In this document: positions 1,124 through 8,968 of the stretch, piece after piece
How positions within the stretch are numbered: position 1 is the first letter of the stretch
Layout: the number at the start of each line of letters is the position of its first letter
From: a virus
Taxonomy: Duplodnaviria > Caudoviricetes
DNA: 62,438 nucleotides
IMG/VR virus record: IMGVR_UViG_3300023174_000004
Location: 1-62,438 of that record
Reading direction: 5' to 3' (one strand)
Position numbers and translations under genes: made by a program
The notes under the pieces: generated by a model
What the model was told of the DNA's origin: nothing
What the model saw: only the letters and a program-made list of their open reading frames with translations
Databases searched by the model: none

Positions 1124-2638
1124 TTAGTAAAACGCTGCGGTTCTGCGGCGAAAGAATTTAATGTCTTCAGGCTCATCACTCGGTAAGCGAATAAACCCTC
1201 CCTGCCTAAACCGCATTAATGCCTGTGTTGTCGAGTCCACCAAGTCATCGTTAGTACCTGAAGGAAAGTCATTGCACTCTTCAATGACCTCTCGTGCCCA
1301 CCTGCGGTCTGGAGCCCATACTATGCCAGAAGCCAGAAGGTCTGATACAGCATTCACTCTTGATATTTTGTCCTGTCCTTTGCCCGGTGTAAACTCCGCG
1401 ACCGGCACACCCATGCGCCTCAACTCTTGGTAGATCGCCGCGCCGTTGGACTTCTTCTCCACAACGAACGCATCTGGCTCCCACTCTTTGTACTCCTCCA
1501 GCACCAGCTTCTTTAACTCTGGAAACTCCAGACGCCGCTTAATCGCATTGAGCAAGATGATGTTGTAGTTGTTAGTCTTCTCGTTGAGGAACACTCCCCA
1601 CACAGTCAAAGCGTTGTAGTCAGCCCGGTTGTTAGCTTCTTGTGCAGCATCCAGACTCATGATGGTGAACTCGCAGTGGGGCGGGTCATCTTCCTCCCAT
1701 ATCTGCCACCACTCCCTCTTTAATAGCGCACCTTCTTCAGAGACAGGGTTCTGCATGTACTGGGCCTGCCAGTACCGGGGGTCCATACCTGCCTTCTTAG
1801 ACAGCAGTTCGTCCAAAGACCAGAAGTCGCTCCACAGTGGCTTATCGTTCAAGATGGCTGGGAACTCTACGATTTCCCATTGATCAACGTCCACTTCTTT
1901 GCTCATCTGGGACACAATCTGCCCAGTTAAGTCAAGTTTTGACCACCTTGTCATCACTATAACAATAGCGCCGCCCGGCATAAGCCGCTGCAAAGGGCCA
2001 GACTGAAACCATTCCCAAGCAGGAAGAAAGACATCGGGTCTGCCAGTCTTAGCGTCTTGTTCAGAATGAGGATCATCAATAATGAATAGGTCAGCACCGC
2101 GCCCAGCAAGAGCGCCACCCACACCAATTGCAAAGTACTCGCCATTGAAGTTCGTCCCCCACCTAGACGCAGACTTACTGTCCACTTGCAGTTCTACCTG
2201 CGGAAATATGTCTTTGTAGGGCTGCATTCCCACCAAATTTCGCACCCTACGACCAAAATTCACCGCCAAATCTGCGGTGTGGGAGGCCATAATGACCTTT
2301 TTATGAGGATATTTGCCCAAAAACCATGCTGGAGCCAGATAACTGATCAGTTCTGACTTACCGTGACGGGGGGCAATGTTGACAATTACCCGCTTCTTCT
2401 TACCAGCGGCAATGTCTTCAAATATTTTTGCCAAGCGGCGATGATGTGGGCCAACTTTGTAACCGGGATAGACATGATCTGCAAACTCCAGCAAGGAATC
2501 CTTGCCAACAACCTGAACTGACTGGGAATCCCACGCTTTTAACGCCTCCAACGTCCTGAGTTTCTCCTCCAAAGGCAAGTTTGGAAGAATTTGTCGCAAC
2601 TTTGCGATCTTTTCAGGCGTCAATTGCGTCTGAGTCAT
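1124..2638 (-). CDS. terL: Terminase large subunit
   Basis: Walker A APRHGKS, GRGADLFIIDDPH Walker B, C-terminal nuclease motif FPSGTNDDLVDS. Confidence 0.95.
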   Translation of the reverse strand: MTQTQLTPEKIAKLRQILPNLPLEEKLRTLEALKAWDSQSVQVVGKDSLLEFADHVYPGYKVGPHHRRLAKIFEDIAAGKKKRVIVNIAPRHGKSELISYLAPAWFLGKYPHKKVIMASHTADLAVNFGRRVRNLVGMQPYKDIFPQVELQVDSKSASRWGTNFNGEYFAIGVGGALAGRGADLFIIDDPHSEQDAKTGRPDVFLPAWEWFQSGPLQRLMPGGAIVIVMTRWSKLDLTGQIVSQMSKEVDVDQWEIVEFPAILNDKPLWSDFWSLDELLSKKAGMDPRYWQAQYMQNPVSEEGALLKREWWQIWEEDDPPHCEFTIMSLDAAQEANNRADYNALTVWGVFLNEKTNNYNIILLNAIKRRLEFPELKKLVLEEYKEWEPDAFVVEKKSNGAAIYQELRRMGVPVAEFTPGKGQDKISRVNAVSDLLASGIVWAPDRRWAREVIEECNDFPSGTNDDLVDSTTQALMRFRQGGFIRLPSDEPEDIKFFRRRTAAFY

Positions 2639-3182
2639 TAGGGATTACCCTCGATTGTACGTTAATTGTGCGTTTTTCCAAGCGTTCTAGAGTTTCGAGC
2701 AACTCTTTCTCCACCTCTTCCATAGATTGTTGTTTGTGAGTGACTTCGGTACGCTTCTTAAACGCATCTACGCCATCTACTTCGCCTAAAGCCTTGATGG
2801 CTCCCAGCCGAATTTTGGCATCGGGGTGATCACACTCCTTCACAAGTTTATTGACTACGAAACGCTTGTAATCTGCAAGTTCTTTTACAAGGTCAGCCTG
2901 ATACATGGACACCATGCCAGCCAAGTACGCCATTGTTTCGTTGGGGTACTGATTTAAATTAAGTTGGGTCTCAGGGTTAGTGATCACTTCGTTAGCCAAT
3001 TGAACCGCTCGGTCCCGATGTTCTTCGGTGGGTTCAATGGGTGTATCAGTTAGATCGGCAATGAGCTTGACGGTTCGACCTCGCATTTGAATTTCTTCAA
3101 AGTCGGTCATTTCAGGCATGGCATCCGTAGCGTTGAGAGGCAACGGAACGTCAGATTGCGGTAGTGATACTAGCGGCGTCAT
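2613..3182 (-). CDS. Putative terminase small subunit
   Basis: 189 aa directly upstream of and overlapping terL; helical with RLGAIKALGEVDGVDAF segment. Confidence 0.55.
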   Translation of the reverse strand: MTPLVSLPQSDVPLPLNATDAMPEMTDFEEIQMRGRTVKLIADLTDTPIEPTEEHRDRAVQLANEVITNPETQLNLNQYPNETMAYLAGMVSMYQADLVKELADYKRFVVNKLVKECDHPDAKIRLGAIKALGEVDGVDAFKKRTEVTHKQQSMEEVEKELLETLERLEKRTINVQSRVIPNDSDAIDA

Positions 3183-3288
3183 AGGAGGAAAGCGGGCACT
3201 CCGTATAAATATATGCCCATTATAGGCATGGAACCAGAAATGTAAAGGGGGGGTCTCCGCAGAAAAAGTGCAGAGTTAAACTGCGGAT

Positions 3289-3315
3289 AAAAAAAGACCC
3301 CCACCGGGGGGGTCT
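3289..3315 (-). terminator. Putative intrinsic terminator on the minus strand upstream of the terminase genes
   Basis: AGACCCCC/GGGGGTCT stem followed by a T run on the minus strand. Confidence 0.5.
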
Positions 3316-3463
3316 AAAGGAGGAGAAGGAGCAACTGCTCGGAGTGGAGTTTAGCATGGAAAAAAGTGTGGTGGTTTGTGTGGATTATGGGGTGTGGGGG
3401 CGGAGGAGTCCCTTCTGCTGTATTGGGGGGTGGCCGGGCGGTGGGGTCGCGCCCCCTGCAAAC

Positions 3464-3492
3464 TGGACATATCGCCCCCCCTTTGGTATATT
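3464..3492 (+). promoter_or_regulatory. Sigma70-like early promoter P1
   Basis: TGGACA-17bp-TATATT, then hairpin CACTGC-AACATC-GCAGTG (3498-3515) and RBS AACTGGAGATCA. Confidence 0.65.
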
Positions 3493-3532
3493 TAAACCAC
3501 TGCAACATCGCAGTGCTTAACTGGAGATCAAC

Positions 3533-3754
3533 ATGAACCAAGAGTTACAACACCTCGCAATCCAGATGTACACGCCACTCTTTGGAGAGCGTGACACTGT
3601 GAAAGAAGCATATGACTATGCAATGGCTATTGCCAAAGCAAGCGACAACCCTGCCGCAGTTACCACGGCAATCCATGTCCTGATGAACACCATCAGCAAG
3701 GACATTGAACTGTGGAACAGCGCACCACGCAAGGTTAGGAAAGAGAACAACTGA
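3533..3754 (+). CDS. Small early hypothetical protein (73 aa); its stop codon lies in hammerhead 1
   Basis: Strong GGAG RBS; TGA is part of CTGATGA. Confidence 0.8.
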   Translation: MNQELQHLAIQMYTPLFGERDTVKEAYDYAMAIAKASDNPAAVTTAIHVLMNTISKDIELWNSAPRKVRKENN

Positions 3755-3796
3755 TGAGACCTTAATGGTCGAAACCGCAGGGATGCGGTCTTGTTC
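3745..3796 (+). ncRNA. Type I hammerhead ribozyme, copy 1 (predicted cleavage after C3790)
   Basis: Stem I GAACAA/TTGTTC; core CTGATGA; stem II GACC-TTAAT-GGTC; GAAA; stem III CCGCA-GGGA-TGCGG; GUC cleavage triplet. Confidence 0.93.
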
Positions 3797-3814
3797 AACA
3801 AACTGGAGATCAAC

Positions 3815-4000
3815 ATGAAACCATGGAATGAAATGACTGCCATCGAGCAGAAACGTGCAGAGTACAGCGACTTGCACAAGGACACATTCGGACATCGCCC
3901 ATCAATGCAGGACTTTGAAAGAGTGGCTAAGTTAACTGATGATGAGTACATGAAAGAGTACACATACTTGGCTGAGTTGATGAGTAGACAGGACAACTGA
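3815..4000 (+). CDS. Small early hypothetical protein (61 aa) flanked by two hammerheads
   Basis: RBS AACTGGAGATCAAC before ATG 3815; YSDLHKDTFGHRP motif; TGA inside hammerhead 2. Confidence 0.8.
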   Translation: MKPWNEMTAIEQKRAEYSDLHKDTFGHRPSMQDFERVAKLTDDEYMKEYTYLAELMSRQDN

Positions 4001-4042
4001 TGAGACCTTAATGGTCGAAACCGCAGGGATGCGGTCTTGTTC
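3991..4042 (+). ncRNA. Type I hammerhead ribozyme, copy 2 (predicted cleavage after C4036)
   Basis: Core, stem II and stem III identical to copy 1; stem I GGACAA/TTGTTC, where a G-U wobble preserves pairing. Confidence 0.93.
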
Positions 4043-4060
4043 AACAAACTGGAGATTAGT

Positions 4061-4249
4061 ATGCAGGTATATATCGACCTTCGTAAAGTTTTTGTAGAAG
4101 CTATGAAACACATGGAAGACGAAAGCGATGTACGCTGGACTATCGGTATGGCGCTTCAAGAGCTATACGGAAACGAGTGGATGTACAGCCTTCAACAAAG
4201 CATGGTTGAAGAATTTGAAGCAACGCAAGCCTTACAGAAGGACAACTAA
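4061..4249 (+). CDS. Small early hypothetical protein (62 aa)
   Basis: RBS ACTGGAGA before ATG 4061; followed by a terminator. Confidence 0.75.
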   Translation: MQVYIDLRKVFVEAMKHMEDESDVRWTIGMALQELYGNEWMYSLQQSMVEEFEATQALQKDN

Positions 4250-4260
4250 ATGTAATTTAA

Positions 4261-4283
4261 GGGAGCTTCGGCTCCCTTTTTTT
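4261..4283 (+). terminator. Intrinsic terminator
   Basis: GGGAGC-TTCG-GCTCCC followed by T7. Confidence 0.9.
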
Positions 4284-4294
4284 ACGCCTATACC

Positions 4295-4338
4295 TTTTGA
4301 TGCCAGTCATTTGTTCCCGCGAGAGCGTAGGGCGCGAG
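4295..4338. repeat. Conserved post-terminator box, copy 1
   Basis: TTTTGATGCCAGTnATTTGTyCCCGCGAGwGyGTA..GCGCGAG; also at 4984-5030 and 5816-5862. Confidence 0.85.
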
Positions 4339-4369
4339 TGCCGAGATCGTGCATCAGACCCCTGTAAAC

Positions 4370-4398
4370 TGGACATAAGCGCCCATTTCACCTACAGT
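4370..4398 (+). promoter_or_regulatory. Sigma70-like early promoter P2
   Basis: TGGACA-17bp-TACAGT, followed by a long 5' hairpin at 4405-4446. Confidence 0.6.
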
Positions 4399-4472
4399 TG
4401 ACCCATGGACAGCAAAGTGCATCGTCTGGTGCAGTCTGTTGTTCATTCATTCTTTTCTTTTTTGGAGATCAC

Positions 4473-4928
4473 ATGAAAACACGCAAACTAAACCCCTTTA
4501 TTAGTGCACTCAACAGCGCATTGGACGACCGTCAAAAGTCAGTCAATGAGATGCGGAATAACATTAACGAGGTCAAATCCAAGAAATTGGAATTGAGAGT
4601 TAAGTATGGACGTTTGTTCACAGACTTGCCCGGCAGTTTTAGCATCAGTCTTTCCTGCGAAAAGCCGGTAGCTTATGTCAGCATGAGACGCCTTGAATCT
4701 TTTAAAGACGCAAGGTTGACCGATTTTTTGGATAAGCTAGTTGCGATGGAAGGTGAAATGTCTTCCACAGATTACGCGAGCATCATGAATCGCTCATTCA
4801 CCTGTAATTTTTCAGATTTTCAGGTTTATGTTGATGCCTATGTGAAAGACGACAGCCCAACCTGCCGTAAGGTGGTGATTGGTACGAAAATAGAGGAAGT
4901 GTTAGAGTACGAGATAGTCTGCGACTGA
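4473..4928 (+). CDS. Early hypothetical protein (151 aa)
   Basis: TTGGAGATCAC RBS before ATG 4473; has its own promoter and terminator. Confidence 0.8.
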   Translation: MKTRKLNPFISALNSALDDRQKSVNEMRNNINEVKSKKLELRVKYGRLFTDLPGSFSISLSCEKPVAYVSMRRLESFKDARLTDFLDKLVAMEGEMSSTDYASIMNRSFTCNFSDFQVYVDAYVKDDSPTCRKVVIGTKIEEVLEYEIVCD

Positions 4929-4941
4929 GACTGATCTTGCT

Positions 4942-4975
4942 AAGACCCTGGGCCTTGTGCTCAGGGTCTTTTTTT
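4942..4975 (+). terminator. Intrinsic terminator
   Basis: AAGACCCTGGGC/GCTCAGGGTCTT stem followed by a T run. Confidence 0.85.
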
Positions 4976-4983
4976 GTCCCTGC

Positions 4984-5030
4984 TTTTTGATGCCAGTTAT
5001 TTGTTCCCGCGAGAGTGTACCGAGCGCGAG
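4984..5030. repeat. Conserved post-terminator box, copy 2
   Basis: Near-identical to 4295-4338. Confidence 0.85.
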
Positions 5031-5068
5031 CGTGGCGGCTATATAACGACTCAGTCCCCCCTGAGGGG

Positions 5069-5097
5069 TTGACTTTCCCCTATGGATAGATTACATT
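5069..5097 (+). promoter_or_regulatory. Sigma70-like early promoter P3
   Basis: TTGACT-17bp-TACATT, followed by a hairpin at 5104-5146; CTCAG-N6-CTGAG site immediately upstream (5050-5065). Confidence 0.7.
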
Positions 5098-5173
5098 TAA
5101 TACATGGACAGCGCGGTGCATCGGTTTGGTGTAGTTTGGTGTCCATTAATTCAACTTTTTTTGGAGATTCACA

Positions 5174-5758
5174 ATGCAAAGCATTAATGTAAAAAACCTC
5201 ACCTATAAATTCGCTACTCTCAAAAGTGACGAATTAGATGTTGCAAAAGAGATTTACTCTGAGTACCCTGATTTTCATGAGCGTCAGAGTGACGAAGTTT
5301 TGCAAGCGGTTAAAGAGGGCGCGATGTTGAAATGGCAGGAATTGAACCCCGCAAAATCTTATTCTGCAAAGGATTGGACACCCGTCAAAGATGGGACAAA
5401 GGGCGCGATTCTCGCCACCGCTGAATGGGCCTTGAGTGTCAGCACTCAGAAAACAAACAGTATGAAAAAAGATGACCCAGGTCAACACGCGATTTTGCGT
5501 AGTGTGCAAATTCCATGCAATGCTTATATCTCAGCGACTAAGGTCGCATTGATCGCAAAGGTGAGAGAGCATCACAATGCGGTTACAGGGATTAAAAAAG
5601 AGAGAGCACCAACGGCATGGTTTACCGATCACTTGAAAACAACATTCGTTGCACTCAAGACCCGATGCAAGACAGCTAAGGGTAGGGGGGACGATGGTGC
5701 TGATAGTGATAAGTTAGATAAGGCAATCGCCGCATTCAATGCGGTTTGGTTAAAGTAA
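5174..5758 (+). CDS. Early hypothetical protein (194 aa)
   Basis: TTGGAGA RBS; monocistronic cassette. Confidence 0.8.
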   Translation: MQSINVKNLTYKFATLKSDELDVAKEIYSEYPDFHERQSDEVLQAVKEGAMLKWQELNPAKSYSAKDWTPVKDGTKGAILATAEWALSVSTQKTNSMKKDDPGQHAILRSVQIPCNAYISATKVALIAKVREHHNAVTGIKKERAPTAWFTDHLKTTFVALKTRCKTAKGRGDDGADSDKLDKAIAAFNAVWLK

Positions 5759-5768
5759 TTTAACCCCG

Positions 5769-5806
5769 AGACCCGATCAATCGCAAGGTTGATCGGGTCT
5801 TTTTTT
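5769..5806 (+). terminator. Intrinsic terminator
   Basis: AGACCCGATCAATC-GCAA-GGTTGATCGGGTCT followed by a T run. Confidence 0.9.
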
Positions 5807-5815
5807 CGTCCGAGA

Positions 5816-5862
5816 TTTTTTTGATGCCAGTGATTTGTCCCCGCGAGTGTGTACAGCGCGAG
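5816..5862. repeat. Conserved post-terminator box, copy 3
   Basis: Near-identical to copies 1 and 2. Confidence 0.85.
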
Positions 5863-5929
5863 TCTTAAATAGCGGGTCAGCCATGCCTGAGGCAATAGAT
5901 AAGGGTTTAGCTACCGAGCCTTCCCCCCG

Positions 5930-6560
5930 AGTTATGTCCAGTTAGTGTTCTAGGTCATATGTCCAGTTTGTTTTGAAAATAGAACATGTCAAGTTTGGTT
6001 TTGTTCTACTTTCAGGACAAACTGTACAAAAGAGTTAGAACATGTCAAGTTAGTGTTCTAAGTTATATGTCCAGTTTGTCTCGAAAATAGAACATGTCAA
6101 GTTAGTGTTCTAACTCTTTTGTCCAGTTTGTTCTGGAAATAGAACATGTTCTACTTTTTTTAAACTTTACAGAACAGAGTTGGACATATCTTTGTCTTAT
6201 AAATCAAGCACTTACAGCGTTCGACCCCTATTTGTTCTATTTGTTCTAGTGTTTTCGGGCAACAAAGGGATTTTTAATTAAAAGAGAGCAAGAGAGCATG
6301 TCAGCAAGTGCAAAGACTCAACTTTACACAACCCGCAAAAAAACATAAAAAAACCCCCGCCCCTCTAAAATCACTAGAACAAATAGAACATGTAAAGTTA
6401 TATATATTTTATATATATATATAGTAGTAATAAAACCCTTTTATTCGTAAAGTTAACCCCTCTTTTGAATACTTTATTACTTTGTTCTAATGTTCTATTT
6501 ACCTGATTAAAAATTAAGCACCGCCTAGAACATTTAGAACATGTCAAGTTACAGCCCTTT
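5930..6560. repeat. Non-coding iteron array with AT-rich tract, putative replication origin
   Basis: TAGAACATGTCAAGTT at 5980, 6036, 6088 and 6535; many TAGAACA/TGTTCTA and ATGTCCAGTT units; 29-bp inverted repeat 6014-6042/6106-6134; (TA)n tract near 6398-6424. Confidence 0.65.
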
Positions 6561-6582
6561 ATAAAAAACACACCTGCTTCCA

Positions 6583-6611
6583 TTGTATTATATGTAAAGT
6601 TACTATAAAAT
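6583..6611 (+). promoter_or_regulatory. Putative promoter
   Basis: TTGTAT-17bp-TAAAAT; the spacer contains an iteron-like ATGTAAAGTT. Confidence 0.5.
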
Positions 6612-6723
6612 GGGAGTTCGCTGGGAGAGAAAACTGCCTGAACAGGCTGGCTAACAGCGATCCGCAGTCTGTGCCGCTAGATAGTGGCTCAGACAACCCT
6701 GAGACTTTAAACTGGAGATCAGC

Positions 6724-7053
6724 ATGAAAGCTACCTTTGTTCAACACAAACTGAACCTGCCCTATCCCCTGCACCCTGCCACACATCAGTACCTGCCCCG
6801 CCGTATGCGTAAGGCGTTGCGCGTTGTGATACCCAAGGGTAAACCCCAGACCTATACCAACTGGGATGTGGATGTTGAATTGCGGACAGACCACATTGAC
6901 CCTGTGCTACACCAGAACCTAGAGTTCCTTGATCGTGCATACGACTTTGATGAGTTCGGTGACATTGACAATGAGTTCGATGGGCTGACGATCGTTGAGC
7001 CCATGAACGAGGTCGAGTTGTTTAACTTCTGCACTGGGTACGATGTGATCTAA
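6724..7053 (+). CDS. Hypothetical protein with acidic C-terminus
   Basis: AACTGGAGATCA RBS. Confidence 0.75.
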   Translation: MKATFVQHKLNLPYPLHPATHQYLPRRMRKALRVVIPKGKPQTYTNWDVDVELRTDHIDPVLHQNLEFLDRAYDFDEFGDIDNEFDGLTIVEPMNEVELFNFCTGYDVI

Positions 7054-7103
7054 ATGTGCAGAGTAATAAACGATGTCTCAGCCTACCCTGAGGAGATAAA
7101 CAA

Positions 7104-7325
7104 ATGAGCAAAAGAAAATGGATCAAGCCTGGGCCCATGACAGGCTATCCCCCTGGCTTACTGCAAGACGATGACCCTCAGTTGTCGAAGTGGTTTGCCA
7201 CACGCCTTGACGCACGGCGAGTAGTGCGTAGTGTTTGCAAGGAGATCGAAGATGAACGACTACACCATGTCCGAGCGCATACAGCGCGTTGTGGTTCTGG
7301 TAGCACTGATCGTGCTAATGCTTGA
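7104..7325 (+). CDS. Hypothetical protein
   Basis: GAGGAG RBS; TGYPPGLLQDD segment. Confidence 0.6.
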   Translation: MSKRKWIKPGPMTGYPPGLLQDDDPQLSKWFATRLDARRVVRSVCKEIEDERLHHVRAHTARCGSGSTDRANA

Positions 7326-7347
7326 TGTACTAATCTGGCGTCCGTGA
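7252..7347 (+). CDS. 31-aa single-pass membrane peptide (not in the ORF track)
   Basis: AAGGAGA RBS; MNDYTMSERIQRVVVLVALIVLMLDVLIWRP. Confidence 0.6.
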   Translation: MNDYTMSERIQRVVVLVALIVLMLDVLIWRP

Positions 7348-7521
7348 GGGTAAATCCCTACGAAAAAAACACGGACAAAAGCATAGGTTTATATGTCAAG
7401 TTGTCTTATAATGAGAACACTGGAGAAGCAAAGTAACAAGCGCCGATTCAGTAGTTCGTTCAGTAATCAATGCCTCAGCTAAGTCTGAGACACAGTTCAA
7501 CCATTCAGTTAGGAGTCAGTC

Positions 7522-7788
7522 ATGGGACAGATGAAACGCATTTACGAAGCCCTCTGCGAGTCACAAGAGTTGGAAGAGTTACTCAACCGCAGACCAGAAC
7601 CCAAACCCCTCACCCCTGTTGTGCATGTACTCACCTGCAATGGTGAGATCGTCAATGTCTTTGTTGACAAGCAAACCGCACTCTTTGAAATGCACCTCAC
7701 CATTCAGGGTGACGAGCATGAGGGTCTTACCCCCGCCGACTATGTACTGGAGACAGTACCCCTTCAAACTCATCGCTTTGATCAGTAA
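7522..7788 (+). CDS. Hypothetical protein
   Basis: AGGAG RBS; TATAAT at 7407 upstream. Confidence 0.7.
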   Translation: MGQMKRIYEALCESQELEELLNRRPEPKPLTPVVHVLTCNGEIVNVFVDKQTALFEMHLTIQGDEHEGLTPADYVLETVPLQTHRFDQ

Positions 7789-8003
7789 TGACAATGCGTA
7801 TGAAACCCCTATGCGCTCGGTGCGGAGATACCTTCTCCGCTAAGAGGGCTAACGCTGGCTATCACCTTTGCCTGATCTGTGGCGAAGAGGAAGCTAGGCG
7901 TAGGCGGCACACCATTGCCCCTATGCACAAGAGCAATTACATGCTCATCACCAACCTTGACGATCTCAAGGGTCTCAACAACAAAGGCGGTATGTTCCGC
8001 TAA
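7788..8003 (+). CDS. Small C4 zinc-finger protein (DksA/TraR-like finger spacing)
   Basis: CARC...CLIC; TAATG coupling to the upstream gene. Confidence 0.65.
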   Translation: MTMRMKPLCARCGDTFSAKRANAGYHLCLICGEEEARRRRHTIAPMHKSNYMLITNLDDLKGLNNKGGMFR

Positions 8004-8029
8004 ACAACTTCTCAGCATAGTCTGAGTCA

Positions 8030-8968
8030 ATGGAGAACGATATGAATTTTGAATTGCAAACCCCCGAGCATGTGATCAGCCTTGCATCTAGTGGACTGAT
8101 CGTCCATGTGGATGTGAATGTTTGGTCAGCAACCAAGCAAGACAAACGCATCAGCAATGAGGTGACTGAAGCATACAAAGCAGACGCAGACGCGGGCCGC
8201 TTCACAAAGAACCTCTTAGCCAAGAACCCACACCACAAGGCGTTGGTCAACTACAGACAGACCATAAACAATTGGTTACAGCGCCGCGCATACGATTGGC
8301 AAGCCAATCTGAAGTACCTGCCTGTGGTGGACATTGAGGTGTTCATGAAAGAGTATCGAGAGCATGAGACCGAGTTCAGGAAGTTGGTGGAGACATTCAA
8401 GACGCATTACCCGAGCATCCGTTCAGACATGGCGTTCAAGCAAGGCGACTTCTTCAATGCCTCAGACTACCCTGAGGTGGAGGAGATCGATGGCAAGTTC
8501 CGCATCAAGTTGTATGTGACCGAGGTTCCGACAAATGACTTCCGCAACAAGATCAGCGAAGAGATCATGGGCGACTTGAAAGATCACTTCCAAAAGCAAG
8601 CCAAGTCTAAGGTCGATGAGATCATGGCGGATGCGGCGGGGCGTCTGGTTACCTTTGCTGAGCGCATTTCCTATGCATGCGGTGAGCCTGAGGATGCGGA
8701 CGAGGTGGGGGAGGATGGCAAGAAGAAGCGCAAGCGCAAGATTTATGAGACAACGATACAACAGACCAAGGACTTGTGCCGCACCCTGAAGGACTTTAAC
8801 TTGACTAACAACGCTGAGTTGGAGGACGCGAGGGCGAGGCTGGCACAGGCACTGGAGGGTATCGATGCGGAGACATTACGAGACAGTATGGCGTTGCGCG
8901 ATAGCGTGAAGGCGCAGGTCGATGATGTGTTGGATGTGTTCAAGCTGAACACGAGTTTGTTTAACTAA
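8030..8968 (+). CDS. Coiled-coil phage protein (DUF3150-like) preceding the AAA/VWA pair
   Basis: 312-aa helical protein; position upstream of a MoxR ATPase. Confidence 0.55.
   Translation: MENDMNFELQTPEHVISLASSGLIVHVDVNVWSATKQDKRISNEVTEAYKADADAGRFTKNLLAKNPHHKALVNYRQTINNWLQRRAYDWQANLKYLPVVDIEVFMKEYREHETEFRKLVETFKTHYPSIRSDMAFKQGDFFNASDYPEVEEIDGKFRIKLYVTEVPTNDFRNKISEEIMGDLKDHFQKQAKSKVDEIMADAAGRLVTFAERISYACGEPEDADEVGEDGKKKRKRKIYETTIQQTKDLCRTLKDFNLTNNAELEDARARLAQALEGIDAETLRDSMALRDSVKAQVDDVLDVFKLNTSLFN

Follow-up and report, generated by a model that had tools for sequence, protein, structure and literature searches.

Hammerhead ribozymes that flank single genes in clusters were described in phage and prophage transcripts by Perreault et al. 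in 2011, who proposed that such transcripts are processed into single-gene mRNAs (PMC3088659). According to the available text of that paper, tandem arrays were cleaved in vitro, one array was also cleaved in E. coli, and spliced or circular products were considered for such arrays, none of which was detected (data not shown there). Tandem ribozymes yield circles in retrozymes, and the predicted circular RNAs of totiviruses are characterized, in the available part of the report, by a rod-like fold, a size that is a multiple of three and an ORF without stops, the 'never-ending ORF' (PMC13725137). Two other systems are close to the locus described here: the RiboJ insulator, which according to the accessible text raises the expression of the insulated genes (PMC6206723), and the PeSL repeats, which in the accessible portion of the paper mediate a comparable shuffling in T4-type phages (PMC2839356). 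Our literature search, which covered the text of the 2011 paper, found no report of natural circular mRNAs from phage hammerhead arrays.

Here, we analysed the complete virus record IMGVR_UViG_3300023174_000004, a stretch of 62,438 nt with direct terminal repeats that we call the window. Its source is an uncultured aquatic tailed phage, represented by a complete genome. The window contains two hammerheads among three small genes, and this arrangement is a layout of a kind known since 2011. The two hammerheads most likely divide an early transcript of three genes into messages of one gene each. What is added here beyond the known layout is a polymorphism of the gene cassettes and a clean set of natural controls.

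The early operon and its two hammerheads

The large terminase subunit gene of the phage is located on the minus strand (1124-2638), and the cultured phages nearest to it by terminase are the lake Phage DSL-LC04, phage 023Pt_psg01 and the Pelagibacter phages HTVC027P and HTVC023P, with 48-53% identity. On the plus strand, a predicted σ70-like promoter at 3464-3492 (TGGACA, a 17-nt spacer and TATATT, with TG before the second hexamer), identified as a consensus match at 10/12 positions, would initiate the three-gene transcript at ~3499. The predicted 5' end of this primary transcript folds into a hairpin, CACUGC-AACAUC-GCAGUG (3498-3515), which was read from the sequence and is kept in the close relatives L030 and L005; it may serve as a 5' stabiliser. 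Downstream of it on the same strand are ORF1 (73 aa, 3533-3754), hammerhead 1 (3745-3796, predicted cut at 3790|3791), ORF2 (61 aa, 3815-4000), hammerhead 2 (3991-4042, predicted cut at 4036|4037), ORF3 (62 aa, 4061-4249), which is the last cistron, and an intrinsic terminator at 4259-4285 that consists of an 8-bp hairpin with 5 G-C pairs (4259-4278) followed by a T run. The promoter and the terminator thus bracket exactly the series ORF1, hammerhead, ORF2, hammerhead and ORF3.

Both ribozymes are encoded between cistrons, on the strand of the genes; each overlaps the stop codon of the preceding gene, and 24 nt separate its cut from the start codon that follows. The stop codon of ORF1 is the first TGA of the hammerhead 1 core. 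As the preliminary description had pointed out, the three ORFs that start at 3533, 3815 and 4061 share one frame, and the sequence confirms that the sole breaks between them are the TGA TGA within the CUGAUGA cores. ORF3 ends with GGACAACTAA, which is similar to the 5' strand of stem I, yet no ribozyme follows it.

None of the five ORFs searched against Pfam, all three small proteins included, gave a family, and PHROG gave only weak matches, with ORF2 hitting phrog_21968 at an E value of 0.0011; ORF1 has neither a Pfam nor a PHROG family. The homologue of ORF3 in L030 is 93.5% identical. A structure prediction of the 61-aa protein, which had been suggested earlier as a check, yielded a three-helix bundle with a pLDDT of 85, and the comparison of this model with the PDB returned no match at E ≤ 0.001.

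Several features around the operon were also observed. A G-rich tract with GGGG and GGTGG runs (3360-3455) separates the early promoter from the divergent unit on the terminase side, and it is kept in L030, L005, L132 and L134, where we saw it through shared spurious 'ORFs'. The promoter box AAACTGGACATA, which holds the -35-like TGGACA, is found at 3460-3471, reappears at 4366-4377 ahead of the next unit and occurs elsewhere, giving 20 matches at ≤2 mismatches vs 5.3 expected. These matches include a minus-strand cluster of five at 5933-6129, and the boxes are probably the early promoters of the phage. Two pairs of direct repeats with 78% identity (4279-4341 vs 4969-5031 and 4393-4424 vs 5092-5123) come after the terminators at 4259 and 4942 and before the next promoters and leaders. 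They are reminiscent of PeSL cassettes, as terminator-promoter modules between successive early units.

The hammerheads are contained in an 81-nt direct repeat detected by a repeat finder (3737-3817 vs 3983-4063, 91% identity, 246 nt apart), within which 3747-3810 and 3993-4056 are identical over 64 nt, as read by eye from the two alignment rows. The CUGAUGA core occupies 3751-3757 in the first copy and 3997-4003 in the second, and in each copy it is accompanied by stem II (GACC-UUAAU-GGUC), GAAA, stem III (ACCGCA-GGGA-UGCGGU) and C17. Stem I is formed by UUGUUC with GAACAA in copy 1 or with GGACAA in copy 2, the latter having one G.U pair, so that stems I, II and III comprise 6, 4 and 6 bp around the core in each copy. 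The defining core elements of a hammerhead, CUGANGA, GAAA, A15.1-U16.1 and an H17 that is not G, are all present in both copies as CUGAUGA...GAAA...U-C17. Stem I is open-ended while stems II and III are closed by loops, which gives both copies the type I topology.

A structural scanner run over both strands of the 62,438 nt found these two as the only type I matches, together with one weak type III-like match at ~17677 whose stems have 3, 2 and 5 bp; 30 shuffles of the genome gave 0-2 weak matches each. With a covariance model trained on 78 family members, both window copies included, the hammerheads scored 72.9 and 72.8 bits vs 13.2 bits for the next-best match. Run with its filters off, this model located no further, degenerate hammerhead, whether ahead of ORF1 or past ORF3. 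Rfam returned no match in the window at its gathering thresholds, which are an annotation criterion and not a biochemical one, and under permissive settings the best scores were 23.5 bits for RAGATH-1-hammerhead (cut-off 56.3) and 22.3 bits for HH9 (cut-off 52). The RAGATH-1 alignment hinted at an upstream CAAGG element, which we rejected as a feature since the family members do not share it.

In isolation, copy 1 has the three-stem junction as its minimum-energy fold (-18.5 kcal/mol), and copy 2, folded as a 61-mer, has a minimum-energy fold with a shifted stem I (-18.6 kcal/mol) and a near-isoenergetic alternative. The minimum-energy fold of the whole precursor contains stem I of neither hammerhead, so co-transcriptional folding would be required. 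Both ribozymes of the window are very probably real and active.

The hammerhead family and its gene cassettes

The compact type I form is plentiful in viral contigs. A search pattern that fixed only the core and stem II matched at least 119 stretches in IMG/VR, and 109 of the 132 matches listed also had a stem I of ≥5 bp and a stem III of ≥4 bp, a count that is independent of the pairing bias of the scanner. Between them, these 109 matches show 37 distinct sequences for the stem I strand and 66 for the stem III hairpin. In an alignment of 78 rows, 12 of the 15 pairs vary on both sides, and the covariation score is 0.680 vs 0.141 for shuffles and ≤0.07 for slid partners. Because the scanner that chose the alignment rows demands pairing, the '100% paired' state of these rows is a product of their selection, and only the range of different pair types carries weight.

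The family is highly uniform among the matches listed, with a 6-bp stem I, a 4-bp stem II and a 5-nt U-rich loop, and loop II is of the type U-N-A/G-A/U-U. Among the same matches, an A precedes stem I at position -7 in 119 of 127 family members and AA follows stem I in 86 of 127. This uniformity would fit a conserved tertiary contact that joins stem I to loop II. A contact of this kind is needed for fast hammerhead cleavage at cellular Mg2+.

Arrays are common: across the 119 loci among the matches listed, the scanner recorded a total of 213 hammerheads of type I. The highest number per locus among these matches was observed in L037, where positions 2297-8601 contain 13 type I hammerheads in 6.3 kb, one ahead of almost every small gene; most copies in this densest array share the stem I GUAAUA/UAUUAC. 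Routine annotation would miss the compact form, because the window copies fall below every Rfam gathering score (Rfam having been run on the window). Neither 3300-4500 nor 3743-3830 had a nucleotide match in the collection of cultured phages. The family model was also run on 34,253 of the 61,547 nt of DSL-LC04 and on 38,703 of the 60,878 nt of HTVC023P, and it detected no hammerhead in either part.

Comparison with the closest relatives shows that the unit between the two cuts comes and goes. L030, which is 97.2% and 95.1% identical on either side, has the order ORF1, hammerhead, ORF3, and L005, with flanks of 95.9% and 94.5% identity, has ORF1, a hammerhead, an unrelated 71-aa ORF and a different terminator; the 246-nt unit is missing from both. 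Conversely, in phages with a terminase region of only 74.5-76% identity, the ORF2 cassette and its two ribozymes are 88-93% identical, and ORF2 has five different upstream and downstream partners. Eleven related architectures combine about a dozen small gene families in varied ways on either side of a ribozyme, and the 64-aa MKTYISPF family and the NTGLR family each precede a ribozyme in one phage and follow a ribozyme in a different phage.

The ribozymes themselves may also be exchanged. Their stem II and stem III variants form a mosaic among the related architectures, and hammerhead 2 of the window-like contig L134 has a different stem III, while the window copies are identical over 64 nt, which would indicate ongoing exchange or conversion between modules. 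The locus behaves as a variable early-gene region in these comparisons, and the hammerhead-plus-leader module appears to mark the borders of swappable cassettes, because phages that are 95-97% identical lack the unit or hold another gene there.

ORF1 has 73 aa in the window vs 100 aa in L030 and L005, because 27 codons immediately ahead of the hammerhead (3705-3754) are lost in frame, and the last ~20 nt before the ribozyme resemble the more distant L033 and L088, not L030 and L005. This similarity points to a recombination junction within ORF1. On its left side, the segment exchanged in the window would then begin ~20 nt upstream of the ribozyme, and the exchange would not be strictly cut-to-cut.

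The 246-nt unit and the matching of its ends

Double cleavage would free a 246-nt RNA (3791-4036, plus strand) that consists of a 24-nt leader with a single GGAG (3805-3808), a single ORF (3815-4000) and the hammerhead 2 body. The structural scanner places the cuts as the preliminary description had them, 246 nt apart around exactly one RBS and the 61-aa ORF. The pairing proposed there between the 5' UUGUUC and a GGACAA near the 3' end was also recovered, in that nt 1-6 pair with nt 201-206 in the minimum-energy fold of the 246-nt RNA, with pair probabilities of 0.23-0.37. An extended end pairing, AUCAAC/GUUGAU, is present in the fold of the window fragment; we rejected it as a conserved feature, since it is absent in L128 (leaders read by eye).

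These ends raise the question of a circle. The middle fragment, with its 5'-OH and 2',3'-cyclic phosphate, might be closed into an exonuclease-resistant circular ORF2 mRNA, either by self-ligation across the re-formed stem I or by a host RtcB. As expected from hammerhead chemistry, the middle piece alone would have both ligatable ends, its ends do pair in the predicted fold, and tandem ribozymes give circles in retrozymes. We nevertheless regard this reading as improbable in light of the following observations, several of which concern the window itself and the others its relatives.

In the predicted circle junction, the 3' end of ORF2 and the ribozyme would be followed by the leader variant GAUCAACAUGAAA / UUGUUCAACAAACUGGAGAUCAACAUGAAA, the latter leading into the ORF2 start; the linear genomic neighbour after hammerhead 2 is GAUUAGUAUGCAG, leading into the ORF3 start, and is unlike the circle junction. 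One turn of the hypothetical circle meets 2, 6 and 9 stops in the three sense frames, and endless translation around the circle is excluded for the sense strand because the ORF2 frame has two in-frame stops (TGA TGA). On the minus strand, a 165-aa antisense ORF (3616-4113) crosses the entire 246-nt unit and one antisense frame is stop-free around the hypothetical circle; the antisense ORF most likely arises as a side effect of the repeat and of the coding frame on the sense strand. A search of the phage genome found no RtcB, RNA_ligase or RVT_1 (reverse transcriptase), although a host may supply an RtcB, and the available text of Perreault et al. reports that circular products were not detected (PMC3088659).

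Public sequence data were also inspected. None of 14 sequencing runs contained half of the sampled words, the best RNA run reaching 0.15, and four runs of unrecorded kind shared 0.26-0.29 of them. X1, X6, X7 and X11 provided contigs of relatives from aquatic metatranscriptomes; these are assembled sequences in which RNA ends and rare junctions are invisible, and they contained no back-joints. Some of the RNA-library contigs of relatives, namely X1 records 2-4 and X7 record 17, continue past the sites of cleavage, which fits uncleaved RNA or DNA carry-over.

The matching of ends was then compared across the family. The loci were de-replicated into 65 clusters, 11 of the 213 scanner hits were dropped before the pairs were counted because of weak stems or too little upstream sequence, and 62 neighbouring hammerhead pairs were kept among the matches listed. 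Fully compatible ends were found in 29 of these 62 pairs vs 294 of 5000 random between-cluster pairs, and the stem III equivalent of this compatibility was found in 8 of 62, which means that stem I varies less than stem III within a genome. If closure by re-forming the ribozyme had been selected, the 5' end released by one hammerhead would be expected to pair with stem I of the following one wherever the arrangement is kept. The neighbours do no better than non-neighbours in the same array (96 of 224 compatible), and 14 of 32 arrays have no compatible pair at all, again among the matches listed. With 29 of the 62 pairs compatible, over half of the fragments would be unable to close by re-forming stem I. 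That 246 is a multiple of three, as had been noted, is correct for the window; as a meaningful property it was rejected, since only 16 of the 62 neighbouring pairs among the matches listed have a spacing divisible by three and the spacing is 247 nt in L120.

ORF2 was also compared in its different surroundings; the gene or a close homologue sits between two hammerheads in five distinct architectures. The ends are compatible in the window type (window, L132 and L134; spacing 246), in the type with a 93-aa upstream gene (L120 = L124 = L133, and L131; spacing 247) and around a 59%-identical ORF2 homologue (L137; spacing 246). In architecture C, with an 83-aa upstream ORF (L121 = L128 = L136, and L122; spacing 246), UUACUC faces GGACAA, and in architecture D, with a 54-aa upstream gene (L135; spacing 246), AUGUAC faces GGACAA; in both cases only 4/6 pairs can form, and the predicted end-pairing probability in L128 is 0.0. 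In C and D the protein is 93% identical, both ribozymes are intact and stem II shows compensatory changes. Thus, the property that the monomer ends re-form the ribozyme, found in the window, is lost in 2/5 of the ORF2 architectures. In addition, the 59-aa ORF2 homologue of L127 is a first cistron with the next ORF directly after it and has no flanking ribozymes.

The downstream stem I strand, GGACAA, travels with ORF2 because it encodes the last residues of ORF2, and the upstream stem I goes along with whatever gene sits upstream. The end-matching of the window therefore looks like a by-product of the single stem I sequence of the lineage rather than a requirement of the gene.

Taken together, the reading of the circular mRNA as a conserved function is contradicted by the ends with 4/6 pairs in 2/5 ORF2 neighbourhoods, by the in-frame stops and by L127. 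A circular mRNA is possible for the window phage, where a minor circular by-product may possibly arise, and the comparative data reduce the odds of natural circular phage mRNAs while pinpointing the lineages that would still be able to make them. We think there is a small chance that, where neighbouring hammerheads share stem I, part of the ORF2 message is closed by self-ligation or host RtcB into a translatable circular mRNA during infection, which would be a longer-lived template for the early protein. If so, it would be the first case of a DNA phage with a natural circular mRNA, and the uniformity of stem I within arrays (29 of 62 vs 8 of 62 for stem III, among the matches listed) would partly reflect selection for closure.

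Proposed transcript processing and comparison with known systems

We consider it likely that the ribozymes cut the promoter-to-terminator early transcript into three linear single-gene mRNAs, with insulation and exchangeable cassettes as the benefit. The release of a single-gene RNA by double cleavage, which had been proposed at the outset, finds backing in the motifs, the covariation of the family and the promoter/terminator context. A single early transcription unit would extend from ~3464-3492 through the three small ORFs to 4259-4285, and the hammerheads would cleave themselves after transcription. The first RNA (~3499-3790) would have a 5' triphosphate with the hairpin and, at its 3' end, a ribozyme body with a 2',3'-cyclic phosphate; the second (3791-4036) would start with a 5'-OH and a short leader that is unstructured and contains the RBS, and would close with a 3' ribozyme body; the third (4037 to ~4285) would have a 5'-OH and end with the terminator hairpin.

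Cleavage into these three RNAs would give every downstream gene the same short leader regardless of the upstream sequence, namely an invariant leader of 24 nt that is rich in A and C and begins with a 5'-OH, and the upstream genes would retain a structured 3' end made of the compact ribozyme body and the cyclic phosphate. By analogy with RiboJ, the expression and stability of each small gene may in this way be insulated from its neighbours. Such insulation would make cassette exchange tolerable and the genes exchangeable, and the conserved hammerhead-plus-leader module would provide the DNA homology through which cassettes are gained, lost and swapped.

The same cassette data could be taken to mean that the repeats are kept mainly as DNA linkers for recombination, which shuffle ORFan cassettes as PeSL repeats do, with RNA cleavage being incidental. 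This would agree with cassettes that are present, absent or replaced among 95-97% identical phages, with the mosaic of stem II and III variants among relatives and with window copies that are identical over 64 nt while the orthologous L134 copy differs in stem III. However, pure linkers would not keep a catalytic core and compensatory changes in three helices over hundreds of copies, and we find this explanation unlikely.

Another thought is that the cleavage is conditional. Translating ribosomes would unfold the ribozyme because the upstream stop lies in the core and the 5' strand of stem I is coding, so that ribosomes finishing the upstream ORF could make the cutting report on, or tune, the translation of the neighbouring gene. 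The stop codon lies within CUGAUGA here, and among the matches listed the stem I 5' strands of the family often have TAA at their end or stand before CUGA with in-frame stops, an impression from inspection and not a count. Regulated cleavage of phage hammerheads was also raised in the available text of Perreault et al. (PMC3088659). The overlap with the stop codon may, however, merely reflect genome compaction, and we judge conditional cleavage to be quite unlikely. That the motifs are inactive relics or chance matches, as the missing Rfam match at threshold might imply, is highly improbable given the perfect core, the 0-2 weak matches in shuffles, the covariation across the family and the retention of the motifs beside the same gene in diverged phages.

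If linear processing into insulated, exchangeable single-gene messages is right, it would explain why such ribozymes gather in variable early regions of phages, and the locus would be nature's equivalent of a part in wide use in synthetic biology. Its single promoter, three very small genes, pair of identical ribozymes and terminator make it a compact natural test bed, and it comes with natural controls, namely relatives without the middle cassette and relatives that have the same gene between ribozymes with non-matching ends.

When compared with the available text on retrozymes and viroid-like circular RNAs (PMC7761336, PMC13725137), the window shares the tandem hammerheads of the same polarity, the monomer of a few hundred nucleotides and the ends that re-form the ribozyme. 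Unlike those RNAs, it carries an ordinary protein gene with an RBS and in-frame stops, is not rod-like, encodes no reverse transcriptase and has lost the end-matching in 2/5 contexts. Of the three features listed for the totivirus circles in the accessible part of PMC13725137, the window unit shares the size only.

As in RiboJ, to judge from the available text (PMC6206723), a self-cleaving ribozyme is located just upstream of the RBS, where it would strip the upstream context and leave a standard leader; unlike RiboJ, the window ribozymes are natural, lie between cistrons and overlap the upstream stop, and the insulation is assigned to them by analogy. The PeSL cassettes, in the portion of the report at hand (PMC2839356), likewise have short conserved regulatory repeats that flank ORFans, and close relatives differ there by insertion, deletion or replacement, although the repeat of the window is a ribozyme with a leader within an operon and not a promoter-terminator element.

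The closest match remains the arrays of Perreault et al. (PMC3088659), in whose available text, as in the window, several hammerheads of the same strand surround single small genes in a phage transcript. Compared with the text of that paper, the window differs in its compact and uniform type I form (6-bp stem I, 4-bp stem II and 5-nt loop), which would be cut 24 nt before the start codon. It also differs from the arrays in that text by belonging to an uncultured aquatic phage lineage, and it adds two lines of evidence: a cassette that is present in some phages and absent from others, and a matching of ends that is not conserved.
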